A DNA stretch of 58,552 nucleotides, filler included, from Sphacelaria rigidula (taxonomy: Eukaryota), in the NCBI GenBank assembly GCA_964200075.2. It is 9 parts of 9 records of this genome, joined end to end, with 100 filler letters (N's around TTAATTAATTAA, not from the genome) between each part and the next. Parts side by side here need not be neighbours in the genome. Positions count along the whole stretch, not along the records: positions 26,070 to 32,486 come from CAXNAA020020194.1; positions 32,587 to 39,003 come from CAXNAA020020195.1; 7 more parts are not named here. One strand, 5' to 3'. Below the pieces are notes generated by a model. That model was not told the DNA's origin. It worked only from the letters and a program-made list of their open reading frames with translations, and ran no database searches. Shown here one piece after another: positions 2,394-45,455 of the stretch. Position 1 is the first letter of the stretch. Each line of letters starts with the position of its first letter. The position numbers and the translations under genes are program-made.

Positions 2394-3439
2394 CCTAACT
2401 GCTTCGAGGGCACCTTTGGAACCCCAGCAATCTCATGGTATGGACCATCACGCCAGATATATATGTATCACCCGCCGTTTACAGATTAAATTGTAAACCC
2501 GACATCACTTATTCCCAGCTATAATACCACAACAATAACCCTGCAGCAAAGAGCACGAGTTGGGCACAGGGATATAGATACACACTGCCGTAGAGCCATG
2601 CTACGATAGGGGGGGGGGGGTGTTCGATTCCACGAAAACATGTGCTCATAGATGCATCAAACGACCTAAAACACTCGCGGTGCGCTTGTATTCGGGTAAA
2701 AGGGGTGTAAGGCAGTATGGACAAACGTTATTTATCGGGAGCAAGCGCGTTCGAACAACTGTGGGCTGCTTTCAACAGCGATTGAAGCAGAATTTCATGG
2801 AATAAAACGGCCCAAAATACCCCCCCCCTACCCTAGCATGACTCCGTAGTTGGGTATGATATATATCTTGTTGGTCGAAGTTTAAACTTGAGCATCTTCT
2901 TACATGGTCGCGGAGTCGCGCGGTGCCGGAACCATGCGCGGTAGGGCGCGGGCAATAACTGGCGGCTTATTGGATACACACCCATGGACAGCGCAGGCAG
3001 ACAAAGCTGTGCACATTGTTTAAGTTCTTTTCACTTCGCACTGTGAGCACAAACATATATATTATCATGCGCTGTCTGTATTGTATTTTGCCCGCTTCCC
3101 TTTCACGTCCTACTGACTGCAGTGGTGAGTATGCCGCAAGAACGGGCGTCGTGACGTACACTCAGTAGCTGACGGTATATAACACCGCCATGCACCCAAA
3201 GTTACAGGCATTCACTTTGTTTAGCCCTACGTAGCGCATATGCCGCGCTGACTCTGGAGTATATTGCACCGCACATGTATAAGCACGATATGATACTGTC
3301 CTGCACGGTATTGTACAGTTCAGTACCGCACCAAACCGTGCTTATTGTTGTTATGGTCATATCGTCGACATACAGGACAAACCGCGATCATACTTTTTCG
3401 CGTGTTCAATCGAAAAAGTGCTTTGATATTGATATCGTA
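2394..3439 (+). repeat. Copy 2 of the ~770-bp direct repeat, interrupted by a MITE
   Basis: Aligns to 1205-1975 on both sides of 2593-2844. Confidence 0.9.
2593..2844. mobile_element. 252-bp MITE, GAG...CTC termini, 4-bp TSD CGTA (Sola-like)
   Basis: TIRs GAGCCATGCTACGATAGGGGGGGG / CCCCCCCCCTACCCTAGCATGACTC; CGTA at 2589-2592 and 2845-2848; empty site TGCCGTAGTC in copy 1 (~1390); a second family member starts at 45456. Confidence 0.88.
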
Positions 3440-3548
3440 GACTCGGGACGACGGGGTTTCAAAACATGTATGTATACATCTCAGAGGTTCATGCACGCTC
3501 TACACTACTACCTCCAGCGGAAGCTGTACAGCGTGGCCATGTGAACAT

Positions 3549-4355
3549 ACACTCGCAGTGTATGGGATTTGTAACTAGCCGAGGCTGTTGAAGACTTCAA
3601 TCCCCTTGCCCAGTTGATACATTTATTCGGGGGCAAGAGGATGAGTTCTTAACAATTCCTTTCATCTCTCGATTCTCACCCACGGATGCGGTGCAGTATG
3701 TGTAACTTGAATAGCGGAAGCTGCTCGCACATAAGTTTTGTTTTGCCCGATTCCAGGCATTGGCGGGCAAAAAGGATTTATTTCGAATATAGCTTCTGGT
3801 GTACAAATCCTATTTACGAGTGTATATGGGACTCTTAGACTGGAAGCTGTTCTAAAAAAACCCTTTTTGCCCAATTCCAAATGTGGAATTATGATGTATT
3901 TCGAACAGCAGAGGCTGTGTAAATTCCAGATTCTCACAGGACTTGTGCCTTCAGAAACAATCCAGGGGATTTGAATATTGACACAGACCTTCGAGGGCCC
4001 TAACATCGAAAATCCTCTAGAGGATCATACACTCGCAACCAATGTATGGGACTTGGATGCTGCCGAGGCTGTTGAAGTATTCTATCCCCTTGCCCGATTG
4101 ATATATTAATTGAGGGGCAGGATGATGAATTTTCAACAATTTATGCTGCTCCCCGAATCTCATCCGCTGATACGGTGCAGTATGTGGAACTTGAACGTCA
4201 GAAGCTGCTCGCAAATATTTTGTTTTTGCCCAATTTCAGGTATTGGCGGGCAAAATGGGTGTTTATTTCGAACAACTCCTATAGTACGAATTCAATCTGC
4301 GAGTACATACGGGATTTGTGCACCAGAAGCTGTTCGAAATAAGTCCTTTTTAGGG
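3549..4355 (+). repeat. Two diverged ~320-bp direct repeats (3549-3870 and 4029-4355)
   Basis: Both begin ACACTCGCA..GTATGGGA.TTG...GCCGAGGCTGTTGAAG and share CGGTGCAGTATGTG, GAAGCTGCTCGCA, ATTGGCGGGCAAAA and GAAGCTGTTC in order. Confidence 0.85.
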
Positions 4356-6570: not shown

Positions 6571-7970
6571 TCACCTGTATTTGCACATTTGGAGCACCTG
6601 GCCGTTATGTGAAGTAGCCTAGTGCGAAGGCTCAGCAAATTGTACGTAGAGCACCGTATGCTCTTCTCATAGACTGCCCGAACATTAAAGCCCCACGATA
6701 AAGACCCTGTCCTGTATTACAGTGGATCTCAAGACAACACACTTCATACAGGGATCGTGCTTTGATTAGGTGCATTCTCTACAGGGCCTAATACGGCACT
6801 GATTTCCATTACAACGTGAACGCTCTCACATTCACCTCGAGGAAATGTTCGCCAACTGTGTGCGGGAACGTCCATCCCCTACTTTCGAAGTCAAATCCGA
6901 TTCAAGTTTTCGTGTGGTGAAGGTGTGTGACCATGCACGGGTCAGTAGCGAGCACATGAAGAAGCAAACAGATGTATTACGTCGCGATCAACTCGCCATC
7001 AATGAAGGTGGGACGTACATGTGCTCCTCCTGCTCAGGCGGCTTGATGCCCACCGGGACTATTTCATCAGCATAGCTTGTAGAGATGATTATATATATGC
7101 ATATATATATACATATACAAATACACGTCACGCCGCACCGGCTCAGCTCTGGGACATGAGGAATCTGATAGGAACATGATACCACTAGGGTTCAGGCTTG
7201 GGTTATACTTGAGGTGCACCCCGTTATCGCCCAGCTCTCAGCTTGATTTAAGCTGAACGGTCTTTCGTATGTGCTGTTGTGGAGACAAGGGCTCGCGAAA
7301 TACTTGTTTCTGGTGGAAAGTGACTCCGACGTGAAAGTATCTAGTGGATATGTTACCAACAAGGTACGCATCCACAGTAACCGTAGCCGGAAACGGAGAT
7401 ATATGGGTGTAGCCATCGTGTGACGCTGAGCAGGTCTCACACCAACAACATAATGGTGTCTAAACAGACCCACCTCTCGAACATGGTCCACACTTGATCA
7501 AAGTCTCTGAGTCTACACCCCCGAGTGGTACATTTTCAAAAGGCTTCAAAAGCATTCACGTCCAACTGACGTCCCCTCACACCCCTACGCCATAGGATAT
7601 TCCCCAATACTCATGCATGCGCCAACCCACCGCGGCAGTTCTATCAGACCGTCTGCGGCACAACACTCGAAATAGTCAGACAGCATGAGCGCTCGGGCGA
7701 TAAATCAACCCTTCCGACAGGGAGGCATTCATCGTCAATTCTCCAGGTCGAACACTTCGAACATTTGTACCGCGTGTTCCTACTTGTACACATGATCTCA
7801 AGAGAGGGCCAAGATAGATCTCGAAAGCCTCGCACTCAAGAACCCAACAAAAACTTCATCCTTGAGAACTCAACAAACGTTTCGTAGTCAAAGGACGAAG
7901 GTCAAGTATGCAGAGTCGAGAGATAATTGACATCGCGCGGCAACAATAACATACCCAAACCATGCCGCCG

Positions 7971-8225
7971 CGCTCCGGTGGTGTAATGGTCCGACTGTCG
8001 CCAATAGGGTGAAGAGAACAAGGGTTCGATTCCCGATAGGTCGGGTTTTTCTGTTCGTTATATCTTATTCACACCGTGGAAAGCGTGAACACGGGAGTAA
8101 ACCAAGTAGTCGACTGAGTTTGTTTGACGCGGGTTGACGGAATGCGGGAGTGCTGACCCAATCCGCGAGATCAAAATGCAAGGCGTGTACCGGGGGAGGG
8201 ATGGGATTGTCTCTTGAGACCACGG
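7971..8225 (+). mobile_element. tRNA-derived SINE, family B
   Basis: A-box-like TGGTGTAATGG (~7979), B box GGTTCGATTCC (~8022), then a ~170-bp body ending GAGACCAC; homologs on the minus strand at 17188-17365 and 23764-24019. Confidence 0.8.
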
Positions 8226-13757: not shown

Positions 13758-16730
13758 AAGGGAAATTCTGAAGATGATGGTGATGATGGCGGAAGGAACG
13801 GGCTGGGCATAAGCCAGGCGTGGAAGACAGGAATGGCCACCAAGGCGGCACAGCGGTACTTGCAGAGGAAGTCGCAGAACGTCAATCTGCAGGATCTCGT
13901 CTACGGCCGATCGGGTACAGGGGGCGCTACCAAGGTGCATACGAAACAACAGTTTACTGTACCGTAACTTTACTGAACTCTTTTCCGGTGTAGTGTACGA
14001 TACTGTACTCCGCTTTGGTGTACTGTACCATAACTGTGCTCTACTCTACTCTATTGTACTCTGTTCCAGTGTACTGTACTGTACTATACTGTACTCCACT
14101 TTGGTGTACTGTACCGTAATTGTGCTCTACTGTACTCTACTGTACTCCACTTCAGTGTACTCTACTCTACTCCAGTGTGCTCTACTCTACTCTACTATAC
14201 TATACTCCACTTCAGTGTACTGTACTGTACTTTATTTCAGGTCTATATGCGAGAGCTGACCTCACCTCTGTACAGTAGAGCCGATTGGGTATAGGTGGCG
14301 CTTGCTGCCCATGCACAAAAGTAGGTAATAGTTTCTCTGTGTACTACAACACGTGGGTCTTCATCCAAAGGGTGGTGAACCGACGGTCGATCCGATCGGG
14401 TACAGGTGGTATTACCAAGGTACATACAACACATACAAGCAACAGGTTAGGTCTTCGGGTGCAGGGAGTGCTGTTGTAACGAGGTACATGCAGTCAACGT
14501 GTAGTCAACTGTACGTTGTGAGTCTTCATCCAGGCTATCTGGTACTTCTAGGATTTCTTTGTAACACTGGTGTGCGAAGATTTTAGGATCTTTTCTGATT
14601 TTTCACTGGGGACATTCGTACATTCATACATCATCACCCAGCGAAAAATGTTGGTATTGGACGTCCGTGGAATTCGCCGCTGGAAAATGACCACTACTTC
14701 ACAATCAAGCGGTAGAGACGGTTGCTAGATGTACCACATTAGATCTTTGTCCGGATGTTGAACGTTAGTCTATCGGGCACAGGCGGTGCCATTAAGGTAC
14801 ATAAAATATATATTTATCTGCCCCGTGCCCTCTAAGTCTTCATTCACGGGTTGACCTATTGTACGGGCGACTGAGTATCAGTGGTGCCATCAGGGTACCC
14901 AGAGCAACTTATGCTCAACCTTAGTGCATAGGTCTTCATCCAGGGGGTGAAATTTGGCCGATCAGGTACAGCCGGTGTGATCAGGGCACAGAACAAACAG
15001 TAAACGTATTTGCCCTATACCCTATAGGTCGTCATCAAGGTAATAACCCTTCGTACGGCCGACTAAGTACCAGTTATGGCCACCAGGGTGAACAAACAAC
15101 GATGCATAGGTCTTCACCTAGGGGTTAGCGAATCGCAGACTAGGTACAGGCAGAGTGTAAAACAACTGCCTTGTGTAGATAATCACACCGGGCTTGGCCA
15201 GGTGCTGATTGGGAGGGGGTACCCATGATGCCACGAAGAGTACATCAAACCGACATTGAGATTTGTACTCACTGCACTGTGTAGGTTATAATCCAGCTTA
15301 ACCGGGCAATGTTACCACATTTTTACACTCGTGACGCTGACGGCGATATGTTTCGAATAATCTGTACCGCGCGAAGCATCGGTACATGCATCATGGCATA
15401 TATGAGGGGCAACATGTGAGCGGCGATGAATCAGCGATGGGTTGGTATACACATATATATATATATATATATGTATGGTGTACACCAGGGCATGTATGGA
15501 TTTGCTCGCGAAAGTAGTAGAGCATTGCACACGTAAAAAAAATTATGACTTCACCCAGTTATGTTGTATGGCGCAACCAGTGGAAATAGGTACCGCTGAG
15601 CTATACCTAATAAGTCATTCGTTGGAAATACGTGCTGCTGAGGTTTACCGTATAGCTCATCCGGTGGAAATACGTACCGCTGAGTAATGCCGTATGGATT
15701 ATCCAGTGGAAATACGTACCCCTGAGTTATACCGTGTAGTTCATCCAGTGGAAATACGTACCGCTGAGTTATACCGTATAGCTCATCCAGTGAGAATACG
15801 TACTGCTGAGTTATACCGCATAACTCATCCTTTGTAAATACGTACTGCTGAGTTACGCCGTATAGCTCATCCGGTGGAAATGTGTACCGCTGAGTTATGC
15901 CGTATGGATCATCCAGTGGAAATACGTACCTCTGAGTTATACCGTATAGTTCATCCAGTGGAAATAGGTATTGCTGAGATATACAATAATGAGTAAGCAG
16001 GAGTTGAGGCGAGTTGAGTTGTTCGACGGGTGAAATATTGCACGAGGCCCTTTCGAGACAGCGATTTTTATTTTTAGAGGGATTGATTTTCACTTCTTTT
16101 TTTCTTTTGCTTCCCTGTTTCTCTCCTGGGTTCCTGTCAGTAATTTGTCTTGTCTGTTTCTCCCTGTAATTTTAGTCCAATGGTTCGTTTGTGTGTTTGT
16201 TTGTGTGTTTGTTTCATCCTTGACTAATCGTTGCACATTATCTGATCTCCGAAGGATCGAGCCGGGGCAACGAGATTTTTTTTTTTTTCGTGTTGCACGT
16301 TAACTGATCTCCAAAAGATCGAGTCGTAACAACAAGATCATTATCCATTTTTAACTTCTTTTTTTTCTTTTGCTTCATAGGAGGATGCTGCCGAAGAAGG
16401 TTCCGACGAAGAGGAAGACGACGAGCTGTTCAAGATCATGGGCAGAAAAAAGAAAAAGACGAGCAAGAGGAAGGACACCATCAAGGAAGACAAAACGTCA
16501 TCATCATCGCAGCTGTTCGGAGATGATGATGACGGAGACAATGATGCTACTGATGACGGTGGTGACGATTCGTCGAATGCGGAAGATGACGAAGATGATG
16601 ATGATAATGATGATGATGATGATGATTATGGTGTGGGTGGAGACCGGTCGAAGTTCAACCCTGATTTGGAGGCGTTGCAGGACTGGGAAGGGACAGGGGA
16701 CGGATGCGCGATAGAGGCTCTGCGAAACAA
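13758..16730 (+). CDS. BMS1: Ribosome biogenesis protein BMS1, two internal exons (13758-13934, 16381-16730); gene partial
   Basis: Exon 1 WKTGMATKAAQRYLQRKSQNVNLQDLVYG matches the BMS1 WK...KAA..FL.R....NL..L.YG block. Exon 2 is acidic and then reads DRSKFNPDLEALQDWEG...IEALRNK, matching the D.SKF...DW...IR segment before the FVTG.W motif. CAG|AAG, AAG|GTGCAT, TAG|GAG and AA|GTGAGG junctions; phase-0 join. Recognition is from memory, not a database search. Confidence 0.85.
13955..14235. repeat. Degenerate (TACTG/TACTC)n pentanucleotide satellite in the BMS1 intron
   Basis: Runs such as GTACTGTACTGTACTATACTGTACTCCACT. Confidence 0.9.
14355..15160 (+). repeat. About six degenerate ~95-bp units resembling the BMS1 exon end and 5' splice site
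   Basis: GGTCTTCATCC.GG...CGGCCGATCGGGTACAGG.GG.G..ACCAAGGTACAT-like units at ~14357, 14740, 14836, 14931, 15028, 15109; the 3' half matches 13902-13945. Confidence 0.75.
15528..16032. mobile_element. Probable old CAC...GTG element whose body is a 42-bp minisatellite (10 units, 15577-15985)
   Basis: Unit CCAGTGGAAATACGTACCGCTGAGTTATACCGTATAGCTCAT repeats every 42 bp. Ends CACACGTA (15528) and TGAGTTGTTCGACGGGTG (16032) resemble the TIRs of 28580-29950. Flanks GAGCATTG/AAATATTG differ by three transitions. The array is certain; the element boundaries are inferred. Confidence 0.65.
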
Positions 16731-28144: not shown

Positions 28145-28579
28145 GTCAATCAAGCATATAATCACCGAGAAACGGACATCTAGGAGTAGAGAATAATTGA
28201 AAGTGCGTTCTCACTGAGCTCTGACTGAATTCGATCCACTACAGCACACAAATCGCCTATAGATGTTCCGTCGAAGGCACCAACACAAGATATCGGTATT
28301 TGTACAAACCCGAAAGTCATTCTCCATTGCGCCCTCCGAGACGCGTCGCAGATTCCTCTTCCTGTGAAAAACTCCAAGGTCATGTTCTGGAGGGTGCGGG
28401 TACGCTCAGTAGGGTGTGAGATTCGTTACAGAACCAACAAAACTGTCGAGTACTGGTATGGGCGTCTAAGGAGTCTGCAGATCCTGTCGGGTAGGATATG
28501 GTTGATGTAGAGAAATTCGTATCCGCACCCGTGTATTTTCACAAGAGTATACCCGAACCTTGATTAAGTGCAACATTTT

Positions 28580-29950
28580 CACGCGTCGGACAGATCAGCT
28601 CCCTATAGCTTGGGCTAGCTCTTTTTAAGCATAGCTCCCTAGTGAGCTATGAGAGCTATATGACCTACGCATGTTTTTCCTGGGGTGAGCTATGAGAGCT
28701 GTATGAGCTGCGCGTGTTTACCGTACGTGAGCTACCAACCCGTTGCTCATCAGCTCAGATTCGTCTTGGGTGAGCTGTGAGAGCTGTTGAAGCTGCGCAT
28801 GTTTCACCTGGATAAGCTACCAAACCGTAGCTCATCAGCCCATATTCGCCCTGGGTGAGCTGTGAGAGCTGCATGAGCTACCCATGTTTGCCCCGGATAA
28901 GCTATGAGAGATGCATGAGCTGAACATCTTTGCCCTGGATGAGCTAGGAGAGCTAGGAGAGCTACGATTGCTTATCTCTTTGATCATGAGAGTAGAAGGT
29001 CTCTGCGGCATCAGTCACACCCGAAAAATATAGTGAATTATGCTAATTTATCAAATCGCCAACCCTCGCGGTCAAAGGGCTAACCGCTTGACGGCGAGCA
29101 TAAGTCATCCGTTGAATCGGCTCCAATTTCACTTGAAAAATGTATGCATAACCAGATGGACTCGTACCCTCGCGGCCAACCGATCAAGATAAATGAATCA
29201 GTCGATTATTGTAGACACTGAAAACTAATACTTTTTTTAACCATCCGACCAAGCGAACGAGGATATGTGTTGGCTTCTTTTCTTTCTATCGCGAATAGTG
29301 AGGCAAAACATCACAACCTAATGATATGTGGCGCCATCCGTTCGAACAAGAATGTTATATCATAAGCGACACGGGGTTGGCCAGGGGCGAGCTAGGCATA
29401 TGACGTGAGTGAGCCACGACCATGTGTCCCTGGGGTGAGCTACCGGACGTAGCTCATCTGCTCATGTTTTCCCCGGGTGAGCTACAAGACCTGCGTGAGC
29501 TACACATGTTTGCCTTGGGTGAGCTATCGAGCGTAGCTCATCCGCATATGTTTTCCCTGGGTGATCTGTGAGAGCTACATGAGCTGCACATGTTTGCCCT
29601 GAGTGAGCTATGAGATCTGTATGAGCTACGCACGTTTGCGATAGGTGAGCTACCAACCCATAGCTCATCAGCTCATATTCGTCCTGGGTGAGCTATGAGA
29701 GCTGTATGAGCTACGCACGTTCGCGATATGTGAGCTACCAACCCATAGCTCATCAGCTCAGATTCGTCCTGGATGAGCTATGAGACCTGCATGAGCTACT
29801 CATGTTTCCCCTGGGTGAGCTACCAACTTGTAGCTCATCAGCGCACGTTTACTTTATGTTGAGCTATCGGACGTAGCTCACATGTACACGTTTGACTACA
29901 AGTGAGCTACCGCCCCCAGATGAGCTAGCTCATGAGCTGTCCTACGTGTG
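28580..29950. mobile_element. Non-autonomous TIR element Y, copy 1 (1371 bp), 8-bp TSD AACATTTT, 42-bp GAGCT-rich subterminal arrays
   Basis: Ends CACGCGTCGGACAGATCA / TGAGCTGTCCTACGTGTG; perfect TSD at 28572-28579 and 29951-29958. Confidence 0.9.
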
Positions 29951-30012
29951 AACATTTTCACATCCTGTACAACTACAATAATGGTAGTTGTTCCCCGAAC
30001 AACCAAGTATTC

Positions 30013-31302
30013 CACACGTCGGACGGATCAGCTCCCTATAGCTCGAGCTAGCTCTTTTTGAGCGTAGCTCCCTAGTGAGCTATGAGAGCTACATGAGCTA
30101 CATATGTTTCTCCTGGGGTGAGCTATGAGAGCTGTATGAGCTACGCATGTTTACCGTACGTGAGCTACCAACCCGTAGCTCATGAGCTCATATTAGCCCT
30201 GGGTGAGCTATGAGAGCTGCATGAGCAACGCATGTTTGCCCCGGATGAGCTATGAGAGATGCATGAGCTACACATGTTTGCCCTGGATGAGCTATAAGTG
30301 ATGCATGAGCTACACATATTTGCCCTGGGTGAGCTATAACAGATGCATGAGCTACACATGTTTGCCCTGGATGAGCTAGGAGAGCTAGGAGAGCTACGAT
30401 TGCCTATCCCTTTGACCGCGAGGGTAGGAGGTCCCTGAATCGGCGTCATTCACCCCCGAAAAATCAAGTGAATTATGCTAATTTATCAAATCGCCAACCC
30501 TCGCGGTCAAAGGGCTAACCCCTTGACGGCGAGCATAAGTGATCTGTTGAATCGGCCCCAATTTCACTTGAAAAATGTATGCATAACCAGATGGACTCGT
30601 ACCCTCGCAGCCAACCGATCAAGATAAATGAATCAGTCGATTATTGTAGACACTGAAAACTAATACTTTTTTTAACCATCCGACCAAGCGAACGAGGATA
30701 TGTGTTGGCTTCTTTTCTTTCTATCGCGAAGAGTGAGGTCAAACATCACAACCTAATGATATGTGGCGCCATCCGTTCGAACAAGAATGTTGCATCATAA
30801 GCAACACGGGGTGTGCCAGCGGCGAGCTGGGCAGATGACGTGAGTGAGCCACGATCATGTGTCCCTGGGGTGAGCTACCGCGCGTAGCTCATCCGCATAT
30901 GTTTTCCCTAGGTGAGCTGTGAGAGCTACATGAGCTACACATGTTTGCCCTGAGTGAGCTACCAACCCATAGCTCATCAGCTCATATTCGCCCTGGATGA
31001 GCTATGGGAGCTGTATGAGCTACGCACGTTTGCGATAGGTGAGCTACCAACCCGTAGCTCATCAGCTCGAATTCGTCCTGGATGAGCTATGAGAGCTGCA
31101 TGAGCAACGCATGTTTGCCCTGGGTGAGCTATCAACCCGTAGCTCACCAGCTCATATTAGCCCTGGGTGAGCTACCAACTCGTAGCTCATCAGCGCACGT
31201 TCGCCTTGTGTTGAGCTATCGGACGTAGCTCACATGTACATGTTTGACTACAAGTGAGCTACCACCCGTGGATGAGCTAGCTCATGAGCTGTCCTACGTG
31301 TG
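30013..31302. mobile_element. Element Y, copy 2 (1290 bp), 8-bp TSD AAGTATTC, nested in element X
   Basis: Ends CACACGTCGGACGGATCA / TGAGCTGTCCTACGTGTG; perfect TSD at 30005-30012 and 31303-31310. Confidence 0.9.
30408..30618. mobile_element. Pair of abutting ~100-bp piggyBac-like MITEs (30408-30514, 30519-~30618) carried inside Y; equivalent pair at ~28975-29180
   Basis: Perfect 18-bp TIR CCCTTTGACCGCGAGGGT with CTAT/CTAA flanks; the second MITE is a diverged reverse-complement homolog of 45013-45111. Confidence 0.78.
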
Positions 31303-31318
31303 AAGTATTCCGAATCAT

Positions 31319-31566
31319 GTGCAAGTAGTTGTTTCCAAACAACTCATCTCTCATAATCGTGTGCAAGTGGTTGTTTCCAAACAACTAACTGTTCAGAATC
31401 GTGTGCAATTAGTTGTTTCCAAACAACTCATCTCTCAGAATCGTATACAAATAGTTGTTTCCAAACAACTCATCTCTCAGAATCGTGTACAATTAGTTGT
31501 TTCCAAACAACTCATCTCTCAAAATCGTGTGCAATTAGTTGTTTCCAAACAACTCATCTCTCAGAA
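31319..31566 (+). repeat. 42-bp tandem array, 6 units, each with hairpin AGTTGTTT-CC-AAACAACT
   Basis: GTGCAATTAGTTGTTTCCAAACAACTCATCTCTCAGAATCGT at 31319, 31361, 31403, 31445, 31487, 31529. Confidence 0.95.
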
Positions 31567-33939
31567 CATAATCCCGCACCGGCATGGTTCATGGGAGGTA
31601 TCTCGGACTCGAGGTTCCTGGCATACTTGAGTGATTTTTGATGTCGAGTATACCCGGGACCTCGAGTTTGAGATACTTGTGGACGGGTGGTGCTGCAGCT
31701 GTTGCACCCCAGCCTTCCTTAGATTTCTCCCTATCATGCAGCAGTTGTTGTGTACAACAGTTGCGTATTTGTTTCACTTGTTCAGACTAAATATGGTGGA
31801 ACTTACTTGTCACTCTGCATCCTGTGCAAGAGTGGTGGCATACTTTCACACCCTGTACAACTACAATAGTTGGTAGTTGTTTCTCAAACAACTAAATGTT
31901 CAGAATCGTGTGCAACTACTTGTTTCCAAACAACTCATCTCTCATAATCGTGTGTAACTAGTTGTTCGGGAACATTAGGCGGTAGTTGGTCGACAAACAA
32001 CTGACTTAGTTGGCTGTTAGTTACAGTTGTACAGGGTGTGAATATTTTTTTATAGAATTTACAGACCTGTCGGGTACCGATGTGGATGCTGTGCAGAAAA
32101 CCATACCCGCACTCGGATACTTTCACAAGAGTGTACCCGTGCCCCGGTTACGGGTATGAGGAGCCTTCAGAACTCATAGAAGTGTCGGATACGAGTGTAG
32201 GAGACTTACAGAACTTGAAAAACCGTCGGGTACGGGTATGGAAGGTTCACACAACTACTGAACTGTCGGGTGTGGGTAACACCTGGGTAAATACCCCGGG
32301 TATACCCGTATGTATCCCACCTTCAGGAGGCAGGCGAAAACATGCGAATGCATACCGTATACTGCGAGTGGTACAATCCATACTGATGAAGCGCCACACT
32401 GATGTTACCACTCAGCATTAAATTAGCCCTTTTGGGACTGGGCCTCCAGAACGACCAACGAGGCTGGTTAGGAATGACGTGTCCTGNNNNNNNNNNNNNN
32501 NNNNNNNNNNNNNNNNNNNNNNNNNNNNNNTTAATTAATTAANNNNNNNNNNNNNNNNNNNNNNNNNNNNNNNNNNNNNNNNNNNNGCATGCATGATCAT
32601 GAGTACACCCCCGCCCCCGCCCCCCCCCCCAGATCAACCATACGTGACTCCAGAGAAGTTTCAGGTCGAGAACAGGCCTGGAGGGAGTGGAGTCATGATT
32701 TTGACAGTTTTGATTGATCGAGGGATCCACAATGTTTCCTTGCAAATTGCCCAATATCGCCAACTTGGTGGTCAAGGTTGAATCGACGATTTGACCATTC
32801 CTGCCACAACCACCTAACTATTGGAGTACGCGATAGAAGGGCGCTTTTTTGTTGTTGGTGCAGATTTTGCGAGCTGTATACAAGTACGCTCTCTCGTGTT
32901 CTGAGGATTGCCGCGCACTGTTTGTGTGCAACAAAGAGCAGTGGTGCGGTGCTTTTTCCAAATAAAAGTGTAACTATGATCCAAGGGTAGCACGATGCCA
33001 TAGAGAGTACATTATGTGATGTGCAGTGCAAGATCAAAATATACAAGAGGTGTACCAGCATTAGGGTTCTCTTGGTAGTAGCATGTGTTGGTCGTCACCA
33101 ATATACTGCTACAATCACGTAGCAACGGCGGCAATGTACCAATCTTGTGCCACCTACTGCTTTTGTCGTTATAAAGTGAGTGCGTGCATTCTATCGTCAC
33201 TTGGTTTTGATGATCGATGATTGATTATTTCTATTCTGTTCGTGCATTGGTCGGCAGTGTGTCCGTACTGACTGCTAAACTTGGCCATGCCCCTTGGAGT
33301 TCGGTCTGTACATTCTTCGCCGATATTGCTGATTGACTATCGACCCCAACGAAATATACATTGAAGGACGCCAGGGTGTGTTCATCGTACATGTTGGTCT
33401 CCGAAGAGGAGAGGCAGTGTCTCAAAACCGCGTGTTCTTTTCCTTTTGGCACGTGCTAAAGGTAACTACTCCTGGATGATTTCGAGCAACATGCCTGTGT
33501 TTCCATTTTCAACTCATCACATAATTTCCACGAATCCACACCCACTTCGGAATATGAATACTCGTGAGAACGCAGTATCATCAAGAGTCCAAGACTCAAC
33601 AATGACAAGGGTGAACAAAGAAAACAGCCAACGGCGTTCGTTTCCTATCCCCCACCGCAATTGTACGTGAAATTCATGAATGTTAACGCGGGTAAAAGCT
33701 GTGGCGAAATTTACTCGAAAATTCCCTGCCTATGTTGACGACACGGGCTTGTACAGAATACGGAAATAAGGGAGAAGCCTGGGTCTGAAGGGTCGTCAGC
33801 CACGCGTGCCGTGTGTAGTGGATCCTTCGTGCATGCCTTGTGACGAGCAAACCTGTCGACGTCCTCGAAATGTCCTCCATTATCCGGGCCATCGTTTAAG
33901 CTGCGCACTGTACTGTTGCTGAACTCCGCGTATATGCAG

Positions 33940-36900
33940 AGGTGCTGCCTCAACCTGTCAGGGGGCGACTCGTGCGTCCTCGCCCTGCGTCCCGTCACGC
34001 GTTAAACGACACTGTCGCGACGGCGTCAGAAAATCCAGAGGACAAGAAAAGCAACATGCCAGCACCTGTGCCAAAGAGGAGCGTTCGAGCCGATATCGAC
34101 ACCCAGAGCCTGAACGTCGCTCTGCGTAGCCTATCCCAGCAGGCGCCTAGTGAGGTTGAAGAACGGGAACCGTTTCAAGGAGGACATCCGACGCACCAGT
34201 GCAAGGGTGATCGACCTGCTGTCCGACATTCTCCTGATGTACTTCTCCTACAAGAGGTTAGTGCGGCGCACTTGCTACGTGAAGTGCAGAGACTAAGTTC
34301 AAGAGGAAACGTTGCGCAGGCCGTTGCACTACTTGTCGGGACCGCATCGGCGAGAAAACGTGTGACGTCGGCGGTGGAGACGTTGACTTCCGTGTCCAAG
34401 GTATCGCCACGAGCAGTTGCTCCTGCTGCTACTAGCAATGACATCCGCGGAGAGACGGGCGGTCGCAAAACAAGTGATGAGAGCCTCCGAGCTGGGTTCA
34501 TCTCCGTGCTGAAGGGGTGCGCAAAAAGGGGCATGTGGGAAGAGGCCAGGCAGGTTGTGGTGAAGCACATGCCAGCTGCAGGACTTCGAACGCCAATGGA
34601 AGCGTGGATCATCGCCATCGACGCCTGTGCCGGGGCTGGAGGCTCGCAGCAGGCGGTGTATCTCCTCCATGAAATGCGGTCCGGGTGAGTTTTGCTGTTG
34701 TGATCATTGTCAGTGGGGTGGATCCCAACAAGTGCAGCAATCGTTCACATTTTCTAACCCCTTGGCCATCCAGGCGCGTCCGTCTGGTGCTCGGCATCAT
34801 TGTCGCTTCACAAATACTGTCAGGGTCAGGTGGTGATCTGTGAACGATCGAAGGGTTGAGGATGGACGCCTTCAATACAAGTGCTGCACCCAAGTCTGTG
34901 TTGTGTGTTTGTGTTCTCATCTCATCTATTCTGGACGTCAGTCTACCACACCTTTCGGTATATGTAGGCGCATCGGCCGGGGTCACACAGGAGGAAAGCC
35001 AACACGGGAGTTTTTTTTCATCTTGTTTTAGTACTACACCTTCCTACTGCGGTGCTTTCCTTATTTTTTTATCGTGAGAGGGGTTCAGCAGTTTATTTCC
35101 TTCGTCGACCTGGAAGTCGATTTTTTGTGTACTCACGACATGGTCGCTCTCCACTGTTGGGCATTATGTGAAAAAAAATCCCAGACCGTGTGACTGCACG
35201 GAGATCCGAACCCACGACCGAAATGTCGGAAGGTGTCGAGGTTACCAACTGAGCCTCCGGGGGGAGTCTAAACTACAGTTTGTTACAAATGCTTCTTTGG
35301 CAGGGGTGTGGAAATAACCGCGGCTGCGTACGAGGCGGCTGTGAAAGCCTGCGCTTGTAGTGGTGGCACAACGCGCGCCATTTTTCTACTGAAAGACGCA
35401 TCTAAACGCGGGGTGCCGGTACGTCCGAGTGCTGTTGCGGAAACAATAACTGCGGTCACCAAACAGAGGAGGTCCTGCTGGCAGCAGGCGCTCTCTCTCT
35501 ACGACGCGTTTGTTCAGCTTGTGGTGGATCAGGAACAACCTGGATTGGCGGGAGTACCAGCGAGTCAACCTGGCAACGACGCTGATGCCTTGAGTGGCGC
35601 GGATGGTCTTCCGAGCGCTGTCCGTCGATTGCACAGGCTATTCGAGTCTGGTTCGGTACTCGAGGAAGTTTGCCATGCGGCTTTGGCTGCGTGTGCCGCT
35701 GGCGGCCAATGGAAGCGTGCGCGCGAAGTGCTCGATACGATGAGGGCCGGCAGAACGGGTGGCAAGCTGAGCACGGCGGCGTATGACAAGACCATCGCCG
35801 TTTGTGGCCAGGCTCGCGCTTGGGATATGGTGAGTTTGGAAAATAGTAGCGTATATCAGTGAGGCGATATACCTCTGCTGAGCTTCGTTTTGAGGAGGTC
35901 GCAGGGTAGTTTTGATGAACATGTCGCACCCTATACAACGAGCAGAACGATGTGTAATTTGATAGATTTTCCACGCCCTGTATTTGTCGTCAAAGCCTGC
36001 TAACGCGAAGCGTTCACAGTGCTCAGAATGGGACATGTGGGACCGAAGAGTAGATTATTTGTCACAGGCCAAATGGTCGCTGATGATGCTGTCCGTGATG
36101 CTGGGCTTGCTTGCAGGTGCTACTGCTAGCTGCCGAAATGCGCGCTGATGATGTCGCGTTAAGCCCTGCTACCTTCGAAACAACACTCCAGGCAAGTGCT
36201 GGTTTATATTATCACAATACGCCATACCGTGCGTTGCAAGCATTAGTGAAGTTAGCTCATCAAGCGATCTCGGTTGTACAAGGAACGGTAGTCCTTCACT
36301 TGAGTTCGTTCATTCACCGTGTCAAGTGTTGAGGATGGGTAGGCAGTATGTCCCTGTTCTTGGCAACCTATGCTTCGCTAATTCGTTTTATCCTTCAACA
36401 TGGACAGGCGTGTGCTGCCATCGGGAGCTGGTCCTGGGCTCGCTCCCTGTTGCTCTCTGCGAGGGCTGGCAGCAAAGATCGCGTGTTGCTGACCCCCAAG
36501 CATTATATCCACGCGCTTAGCGCATGCGCAGGGGTTCTGAGCAAACCTGGGGGACCAGAGGCACAGGGCGCGATGAAATTCGCCCTTGCTCTTATTCAGG
36601 ACCTTCGCGATGCCGGCTGGTTGAAAGGGCAGCAAGGGGAGGACGCCTACGTGTTGGCGATGCGGACATGCGTTCCTGCTCAGGATGCGTGGAGTGCATT
36701 AGCCCTGCTCGACAATTTGGAGGACGACGGGATACCAGAAGGCCCGGCGCTAAGAAGTGCCGCAATGCAGGTAGTCTGATATAGCATCGTGCGTGCAAAA
36801 TTTTCCCAGGGAGTAATGAGGGCCTCGCTTGCTCGAGCATAACATATCGCATAAGAATCGATTTATGCCACACGGAATTGCGTCATGTCGCTGGTAGACG

Positions 36901-38718
36901 CATTTTCAACACCCGTACTAACTGTGCTGATACCAAGCAAGGCTCTAAGTGGAGCGGGCGAGTGGCGCGCTGCTCTGTCTATTCTCGACCGTGTGCTGAA
37001 GGAGGGCGAGCAGCCAGGCGGCGCCATGTATGTTGCAGCCATGGCAGCTTGTGCCAGAGGAGGCGTGTCGGACCTTGCACTCGAACTGCTTGAGAGGGTT
37101 TTGGTGGAGTACCCTGGCGATAAAGAGGTGAAGAGGTGACTACATATCCCTGTGGTTAGTCGGCTGAGGCCTGGTTGCACTCGAGCTCCAACGTGATTGC
37201 GTTGTACGATACGAAGACTTCGACTAGTGAAGAATTTCGATTAAGATTGTGAATGTGCCCTTTCGATCGAGCCATTCGATGTGTCGAACTGTAAGGAGAT
37301 GTGATCACCTGTGATACCAAATCACGAGCAGACTCGGTCACGACACCAATAGCTTGCTCCACCGCTTCACGTTCGTTCGGCCTGTACGATGCTCTTGCGC
37401 AAGATTGTGACGGCAGCGTACCATGGAGCCATCACGGCCTGCGCCGAATGCGGGCAGTGCGAGAAAGCGACTTCGTTGTTGCAGAAGATGCGTCAGGATT
37501 CTCTTGCAGTGGTGACGATCGCCGAGGTGTGTCGAAGAAGAGCGGGGAGTCACCCTGGGCGAGAAAATAAGTAATATCTAAAAGCTCAGGCCTATCTGTC
37601 CATGCTCGACAGAGCTAATGTGCACAGGGGTCATTTTCTTTACACTCTGAACGAGGATTATATGCTGTGACCAAATTCCGGCCCTTCGATAAAACGACGC
37701 GCCACGTTGTACAGCGCTTATGTCACTAGATACAGAGTGCGCTTTTTGTTCTGCTGAGCTCATACGGATGAATGACCACATCACCGACATGTAACTTCAC
37801 TGAGTAACGATCACTTCCTACTCTTCCGGCTGTGACGTTCGCGTCTTTCGCTCATTACCCATTTTCCGCAGTACAATGCAGCCATCTTGGCCTGCTGCCG
37901 AGCGCGACAGTCCTTTGCTGCTCTATCTCTACTAGGCGATATGTTCGTCGACGGGGGTATATGGCAGCCAAAAGGATCTGGGATTCACGAGAACGGCCTG
38001 AAGCCTAACGAAATGAGCTACAACCTTGTGATGCGAACGTTCGCCCAGGAAGGACGGTGAGCACGTGGCACGTACGTGTTTCGTAGTCGTGTGCTAGGTG
38101 CGCATTGGCTGCCACCGCCGGTGTGCGGACGGGACTCCCTTGCGTCAGTGCATAGAGTCACGTGGAACAGCGTTGCATTCTGTCAACGGGCATGGCTGCT
38201 CTGCAAATCTGTCCGTTTGGTATATCAACGGGGGGTGTCCAGAATGTCCTCTCCAATTGTTTACGTCATGCTTGGAACAGGTGGCAAACGGTGATGGACC
38301 TCATCTTGAGTATGCGTGACGAGGGCGGTCTGGTCCCAGGGGTGTCGAGCTACAACATTGTTGTGGATTCCTTGGCCAGGGCTGGTGAGTGGGAGCAGGC
38401 ACTTCGGGTTCTCGAGGAGATGAAGTCGATTGGCGTTCGGCCGACGGAGTTCACCTACAACTGCTGCATGGCAGGTACGATACCCAAGCAATAGTGTCAC
38501 GTGTTTCTTCGCGGACTGCTCCACGCCTGCATGGAGCGCATCGGCAGAAATTATGTCACCCTGATTTCTCTCAACTACGCTTGCATGCGCTCACAGCCTG
38601 CGAAAAAAGCGGTATGTGGGAGGAAACGATGTCTGTGATGCGGGACATGAAAGACCAGGGAGATCTCGTGCCGGACAGCTATGCGTTCAGCACTGCGATG
38701 ATGGCGTGCTCCAAAGCG
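33940..38718 (+). CDS. Pentatricopeptide repeat (PPR) protein, partial; exons 33940-34684, 35304-35829, 36117-36191, 36408-36770, 36942-37127, 37404-37526, 37872-38056, 38281-38474, 38597-38718
   Basis: Repeated 35-aa helical motifs (e.g. SYNIVVDSLARAGEWEQALRVLEEMKSIGVRPTEF, TYNCCMAACEKSGMWEETMSVMRDMKDQG). All eight junctions are GT/GC-AG and phase-consistent (2,0,0,0,0,0,2,1). Branch point TACTAAC at 36916. Confidence 0.93.
34897..35265 (-). mobile_element. tRNA-derived SINE family A, full length, antisense in a PPR intron
   Basis: Reverse complement aligns end to end with 41467-41830, including the A/B boxes and CA-rich tail. Confidence 0.88.
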
Positions 38719-38919
38719 GTGAGCGTTTGCCACGGGATTTTCATGTGCCGCCGGAGTGTATGAGTCACACCGTCGGATTAGGGGTGGTCAATTGGGCAAG
38801 TTTGCGCTCTTTAAATCCCCATTGATAGGCCACCCGCAGGATGCCTTCAAGATGTTACGACGGGATGCCCTTACATGGCGTCCTTCTTCATTCATGCATT
38901 GTTGATACTATACCACCAC

Positions 38920-45012: not shown

Positions 45013-45111
45013 CCCTTAGACCGCGAAGCGGGTAGTCCATCTGGATCACGCATTTTTTTCAAGTGAAAATTGATGCCAATTCAGCAGATCACCCCCGTCG
45101 CGGTCTAGGGG
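45013..45111. mobile_element. 99-bp piggyBac-like MITE at a TTAA site
   Basis: TTAA|CCCTTAGACCGCGA...TCGCGGTCTAGGGG|CTAA; the empty site CTTCTTAATGAGGGG is present in the paralog at 5552-5566. Confidence 0.85.
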
Positions 45112-45455
45112 CTAACGAAGGGGATTATACCCTTTTTCACAATCCCCTTTTGACAGAGGATTGGCCCCAAAACGACTAGCCTCCAGTCCTGTCGACAAGC
45201 AGTTCTGTACAGATTCGAACCAGATCTGCACGCAGGTTGAGGAATGCGGCGGGTCTGGGAGTGGCTGTTAGTCCAAGCCGGTCCAAGGTCTGTGTAATGC
45301 TGCAGACGAGACACAACAAGGCAACACATCACCTGCACACCCAGCCTCGAAAAAACACGCACAGACACCCACCACTCACGCGCACTAGTTGCACTGCTGG
45401 CCCTTGCTAATCTACACCCCGTAGTTTTTGTTTGACAGAAATACGTTCTATATTG

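Follow-up and report, generated by a model that had tools for sequence, protein, structure and literature searches.

Does the repetitive region at positions 28572 to 32048 of a 58,552-nucleotide stretch of the brown alga Sphacelaria rigidula (assembly GCA_964200075.2; hereafter the window) represent a tandem duplication or a nest of transposons, and if the latter, do these transposons return to the target-site duplications (TSDs) of their predecessors? A first-pass annotation had favored a nest of CACAC-GTGTG elements, termed X and Y, which used one another's TSDs as landing pads and possibly belonged to a poorly described family. Searches of the assembly (244 Mb, 27,214 contigs) revealed that the nest is real and that the two Y copies, Y1 and Y2, are separate insertions, each with its own perfect 8-bp TSD. 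Three non-autonomous hAT elements, inserted by cut-and-paste transposition through the mechanism proposed below, very probably make up the nest. Its parts are as follows, with strand given where one applies and with terminal inverted repeats abbreviated as TIRs.

28426..28571: left portion of the older host repeat that received the nest, with GGGTACGGG-type units (empty-site alignment, 67% identity)
28572..28579: TSD copy AACATTTT, left of Y1
28580..29950, plus strand: Y1, non-autonomous hAT element of 1371 bp, deletion joint near 28966
29951..29958: common 8-mer AACATTTT, serving Y1 as its right TSD copy and X as its left one
29959..32040: composite X, 784 bp once Y2 and one TSD copy are taken out, consisting of a left arm, putatively captured DNA, and a complete inner X
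30005..30012: TSD copy AAGTATTC, left of Y2, an 8-mer native to X
30013..31302, plus strand: Y2, second non-autonomous hAT copy of Y, 1290 bp, 54 bp inside X
31303..31310: TSD copy AAGTATTC, right of Y2
31311..31566: 42-bp subterminal array of the X left arm, ~6 units
31567..31846: putatively captured DNA within X, 280 bp, with a palindromic mini-repeat of ~80 bp at 31598-31676
31847..32040: complete inner X of 194 bp, bounded by near-perfect TIRs CACACCCTGTACAACT, with left flank CATACTTT
32041..32048: TSD copy AATATTTT, right of X, matching AACATTTT at the X left flank in 7/8 positions
32049..32271: continuation of the host repeat on the right

The three layers thus read AACATTTT-Y1-AACATTTT, 54 bp of X, Y2 bracketed by AAGTATTC, the remaining X, and AATATTTT, all within a single contig (G000:C20194). 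When Y1 and Y2 are aligned, 1131 columns match, 109 mismatch, and 181 contain gaps; identity over aligned columns is 91.2%, and the two copies differ in the number of array units. Upon removal of Y2 and one TSD copy, 17 of 17 other X copies tested could be aligned through the site, where one 8-mer is present, and the flanks of the whole nest aligned across the junction with three host-repeat stretches, at 67% identity, among the loci examined. Because both empty sites were recovered, Y1 and Y2 are to be regarded as insertions rather than as a tandem duplication. The coordinates and TSDs first annotated for Y1, X, and Y2 held on re-reading of the sequence, as did the independence of the Y insertions, which have different perfect TSDs and empty sites for both layers. 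The first outline of X was correct in its ends and TSDs but had overlooked a second X left end at 31847.

Y derives by internal deletion from a hAT element of 8,032 bp. A profile search with PF05699 returned 139 matches in the genome, and in 1 of 30 such loci that were cut out, the Y core and right arm were found just downstream of the hAT domain. The parent element (L106 1624-9655; G000:C3058) extends from the Y left end through the Y right end, and Y matches it with 89-93% identity over the first 111 bp, 88-89% in the core, and 92% over the last 130 bp. The middle 6.4 kb of the parent is missing from Y, with the joint, as read from the alignment, at a 2-bp GA overlap. This middle part contains a spliced transposase gene (PF05699; E value, 1.7e-14). 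Alignment to the brown-algal homologue P0006 located the motifs DLW, VTD, CFPH (CxxH), RW, and ERD (catalytic E region) in L106 and the DDE triad, CxxH, and RW motifs in both L106 and L205. P0006 aligns with Hermes across the DDE/CxxH/RW motifs (E value, 5e-11) and has hAT/ZBED1/ZBED4-like nearest Atlas clusters, and the last exon of the copy on C8116 also matches Hermes (E value, 4e-7). Named protein relatives are from Ectocarpus, Hapterophycus, Scytosiphon, and Sphacelaria, as expected for a brown-algal host. Parts of the parent were found on seven further contigs with 83-95% identity; the gene is continuous with the Y right end on C8116 (93%) and C23804, and C173 and C2518 contain parent sequence from the left end inward.

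The Y clan accordingly belongs to the hAT superfamily, and its imperfect TIRs of ~14 bp, adjoined by TGAGCTA-rich subterminal arrays of 42/85 bp, fall within the 5- to 27-bp range of the short TIRs of hAT elements. The suggestion of a poorly described family combining hallmarks of hAT/P with those of CACTA was not borne out: the gene between the Y ends is an ordinary hAT transposase gene, and the hallmarks cease to be mixed because CACAC-GTGTG ends are listed for Ectocarpus hAT-2 and subterminal repeats are normal for hAT. Another hAT family, with 48% identity in its C-terminal part, ends on C8403 in the CACACGTCGGACAG motif, as Y does, and its alignments with two further contigs start at the CACACGTCGGACAG boundary and run inward. 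A second Y-type deletion derivative (L136, L137, L139) joins parent positions ~1-962 to ~7500-8032, and at least two independent deletion breakpoints are present among Y-type derivatives. TIR-like sequence occurs inside the parent 5' region in several copies (L106 ~3255-3282; L129 4144; L133 2640). Y-in-Y nesting occurs elsewhere (L117 3014-5375 and L121 1563-3825), with a Y left end within another Y and a Y adjoining an oppositely oriented Y fragment. The window itself contains, at 45034-45114, a short inverted match to the Y core (77-79%).

TSDs were examined in a similarity-chosen, non-random sample of 210 loci, the ends of which were paired into copies. Of 28 paired Y copies, 16 have perfect 8-bp TSDs and 23 match in at least 7/8 positions; of 17 X copies, 3 are perfect and 14 match in at least 6/8. 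These counts support 8-bp TSDs genome-wide. No perfect repeat of 2-7 or 9-12 bp was found in any paired Y or X copy, and perfect 2- to 5-bp repeats numbered 0 in 51 paired copies. X appears to be older than Y because its TSDs are more decayed, and its combination of 8-bp TSDs with short TIRs is that of hAT elements.

X and Y both make their 8-bp TSDs at a palindromic target, V-AA-NN-TT-B, of ~4 bits, with A2 and T7 at ~90%. With 80 ends of Y and 52 of X read outward (a copy contributes its two ends, so that the counts are non-independent), the frequencies in Y and X, respectively, are 0.89 and 0.94 for A2, 0.71 and 0.83 for A3, 0.65 and 0.77 for T6, and 0.93 and 0.92 for T7. These near-identical matrices uphold the idea of a common target preference. 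When 153 ends of Y, X, and a related miniature inverted-repeat transposable element (MITE) were pooled, positions 2, 3, 6, and 7 were A, A, T, and T in 87, 73, 66, and 86%, and position 1 was A in only 42%. The originally proposed AA-N3-TT motif fits 69 of 153 ends when either strand is allowed (versus 57 of 153 for strict nAAnnTTn) but is out of register. The pattern nAnnnnTn fits 118 of these ends, nTnnnnAn fits 4 (0 of 80 Y ends and 0 of 52 X ends), and nnnTAnnn fits 17. Short MITEs (113-189 bp) with CACACCCTGGACAA ends likewise have 8-bp TSDs, 4 of 6 perfect (L017 160-348 and 437-573; L040 2472-2608; L199 6547-6681), and theirs is the commonest end type among the first 100 of the end-pattern matches listed.

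The X and Y TIRs have the common shape CACAC....G.ACA. Composite X of the window type was found at three sites, and the 280 bp of inner DNA was found in full length at four places, namely, the window, C5015, C6518, and C4350. C5015 contains the same composite as the window, with a perfect TSD, and C6518 does also, with its outer end out of view; in the other composites, the left flank CATACTTT of the inner X is identical to that in the window. On C4350, the 280 bp stands without X, and similarity stops at the would-be target. A second kind of composite, on C21355, has other DNA inside and is flanked by a perfect TSD. From these copies we infer that composite X arose by capture of flanking DNA when the ends of two neighboring copies were paired, similar to the "alternative transposition" described in PMC4316626. 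The palindromic mini-repeat at 31598-31676 has at least dozens of copies in the genome.

A transposase related to that of Y likely moves X. No X parent was found among the 20 hAT loci nearest the Y transposase and 4 earlier loci, or among the 5 followed of 47 matches in an X-core search. C16720 was rejected as the parent, since 5.6 kb separates its X copy from its hAT gene and the two are unrelated. An X-like end beside a hAT gene on C13751 proved to be a separate palindromic MITE, and for L186 and L191, the end located 5' of the gene is unproven as a terminus, the flank being identical in both.

Y consists of the two ends of an 8-kb hAT element from which the transposase gene (~6.4 kb) has been deleted. 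We propose that a hAT transposase acting in trans binds the subterminal arrays via an N-terminal zinc finger, cuts at the CACAC ends, and integrates with an 8-bp stagger, as Hermes does. The nest lies in the older host repeat, and Y2 inserted into X. Composite X would have arrived first, with Y1 later entering the left TSD of X; this order is suggested by the single mismatch in the X TSD, the lack of any in that of Y1, and the greater decay of X TSDs genome-wide. A sister CACAC-ended hAT transposase is most likely what mobilizes X. A few re-hits are to be expected from sequence preference alone, because any TSD necessarily makes a good target and thousands of ends are present.

Two other accounts of the nest were weighed. 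Tandem duplication or misassembly of the Y1-Y2 pair might be suspected in a short-contig assembly with two similar 1.3-kb copies only 62 bp apart, but it is barely credible in view of the different perfect TSDs, the 9% divergence with different array unit counts, the recovery of both empty sites, and the confinement of the nest to one contig. Alternatively, X could belong to another superfamily with 8-bp TSDs (KDZ/Zisupton or P) and have converged on the same target, which would suit the lack of a hAT parent for X among the loci examined, the 8-bp TSDs of Zisupton, and the tandem-repeat termini of Ectocarpus KDZ elements. We consider this improbable, as the target matrices of X and Y are nearly equal and their TIRs have the same shape, whereas listed Ectocarpus KDZ termini begin with GGG or CAGTA and P termini are CAAGG with 7-bp TSDs. 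KDZ/Zisupton, our first lead, was superseded by the hAT gene between the Y ends; PF18758 (KDZ transposase) had 0 matches in the genome, with controls equally empty.

It remains to ask whether insertion into TSDs exceeds what the target preference of these hAT elements predicts. A 13-base end pattern gave 5,049 matches versus 373 for the control, corresponding to ~4,700 CACAC-type ends in the genome. Back-to-back ends within 30 bp yielded 14 rows, representing 10 junctions (control, 0), with five gaps of 8 bp (window included), two of 7 bp, and one each of 9, 22, and 30 bp. At the 8-bp junctions on C1520 and C23850, the 8-mer is present three times with small changes; on C18330 two copies are visible up to the end of the contig. 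The junction on C21155 is unconfirmed, as the far flank located there fails to match. The 7-bp gap on C8290 and the 9-bp gap on C26558 are targets shifted by one base. A leave-one-out target matrix gave mean weights of 17, 61, and 14 for gaps 7, 8, and 9 (~1 or less for other gaps from 4 to 14), compared with observed junctions of 2:5:1. The expected number of 8-bp junctions was 1.4, 2.8, or 4.4, depending on the baseline (P of five or more, 0.013, 0.14, and 0.45), and 3.8-12 with a 14-bp matrix. TSD re-use is therefore real, but its frequency is as target preference predicts under most baselines: the notion of the TSD as a landing pad stands as far as repeated re-use is concerned (5 of 10 junctions), and not for a rate above expectation. 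Two looser searches were less telling. GTGTG-N8-CACAC was uninformative (494 per strand versus 516 for the control), and an end followed by CACAY alone showed no excess at gap 8 when the first 100 of the 228 matches listed were counted by hand (22, 6, and 25 at gaps 7, 8, and 9); a weak preference for CA in the flank is the probable reason.

A dedicated process, in which the transposase is recruited by the end or subterminal array of an existing element and inserts at its TSD, would account for five junctions at exactly 8 bp against two across 28 gaps outside 7-9, for the threefold TSDs in the window and on C1520 and C23850, and for the low P value under the strictest baseline. The other five baselines gave P values of 0.14-0.99, however, gaps 7 and 9 occur in target-matrix proportion, and only ~5 of ~4,700 ends are affected, so that we regard such a process as unlikely. 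No special landing-pad mechanism is needed, because target preference alone predicts 1.4-4.4 junctions at gap 8 along with the 7- and 9-bp gaps. A small residual, a few-fold addition, may come from local hopping or clustering.

Several observations weigh against the reading of the nest as three hAT insertions. Of the first 11 TIR bases, 4 are different between X and Y, which places X outside the Repbase rule for non-autonomous elements that one mismatch is tolerated (PMC4455052). No transposase gene could be tied to X ends among the loci examined, which include a minority of the 139 PF05699 places with long flanks. L106 contains two frameshifts and one stop, its flanks GAAGTTTT and AACATATT form no TSD, and no copy spanning both parent ends with a TSD was found among the loci examined. 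The putative N-terminal BED finger, a W-x-C..C..RH..H pattern recognized by eye in the L106 open reading frame (ORF) at 3259-3750, has no Pfam match. The order of X before Y1 rests on one mismatch and family-level decay, and the five junctions exceed the 1.4 expected under the strictest baseline (P = 0.013).

Elsewhere in the window, 33900-38763 (plus strand) contains exons of a probable pentatricopeptide repeat (PPR) gene, with weak PPR matches below Pfam cut-offs in 2 of 4 ORFs tested. An unrelated 42-bp tandem array of 10 units at 15566-15984 has a period equal to that of the X and Y subterminal arrays.

The value of these findings lies mainly in annotation, in that an abundant brown-algal repeat clan can be classed as hAT and a measured TSD length and target are supplied for CACAC-ended hAT elements, for which the Ectocarpus entry assumed the TSD. 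Neighbors with shared TSDs arise at about the rate set by target preference. The reversed A2/T7 preference is the one point that transposon specialists may wish to take up; if true, a reversed-target lineage could be set against Hermes as a naturally occurring counterpart in the search for the residues by which target positions 2 and 7 are read.

Among known systems, EnSpm/CACTA (CMCT) elements resemble those described here in their CAC...GTG ends and repeat-rich subtermini, but their 2- to 5-bp TSDs were not seen here, and KDZ/Zisupton elements share the 8-bp TSD; in both comparisons, the gene between the Y ends is instead hAT. Ectocarpus hAT-2 (hAT-2_Ec32; Repbase hAT-2_ESi) has CACAC-GTGTG termini, 8,945 bp, and a spliced gene, and its listing gives 92 copies or fragments, 21-bp TIRs, and an 8-bp TSD that is only assumed (PMC12477816). 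By this listed description, it is like Y in its termini, its 8- to 9-kb size, its spliced hAT gene, and its brown-algal host, in contrast to the ~4,700 CACAC-type ends, measured 8-bp TSDs, and imperfect ~14-bp TIRs found here. Y could already be known as a member of the hAT-2 family, the comparison being one of descriptions. The short BuT2 copies and mRover1 are like Y in having kept their ends, lost the transposase gene, amplified in trans, and acquired distinct TSDs (PMC3942097, PMC4316626), whereas Y is larger (1.1-1.8 kb) and has long 42/85-bp arrays and at least two deletion breakpoints.

Hermes and Ac share with the Y parent the DDE, CxxH, and RW motifs and the C-terminal dimerization domain, and with Y the short imperfect TIRs, subterminal repeats, and 8-bp TSD (PMC10368747, PMC8961557, PMC4316626); the Y parent differs in its spliced gene and its length of 8 kb rather than 2.5-5 kb. 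The subterminal repeats of Hermes are bound by BED domains, and its target is nTnnnnAn (PMC10368747), a T2/A7 target called characteristic of Ac elements (PMC8961557, PMC4316626, PMC8721813), although Rover and Roamer lack the T2/A7 rule and are still placed in Ac (PMC4316626). ZBED1/ZBED4 also lie in the Ac family (PMC3606216), and Hermes and ZBED1/4-like clusters are the nearest matches by similarity search. The Buster target nnnTAnnn (PMC3517528) is found at few ends here (17/153), and the accessible text of PMC3942097 does not investigate the target of Tip. No hAT element with an A2/T7 target was found in the literature searched, most subscription papers being outside its reach. We offer only tentatively the broader view that these elements may form an Ac-like brown-algal hAT lineage, with ~4,700 ends spread in the genome, whose non-autonomous members capture flanking DNA by pairing neighboring ends and whose target rule, nAAnnTTn, reverses the nTnnnnAn of Hermes and Ac.

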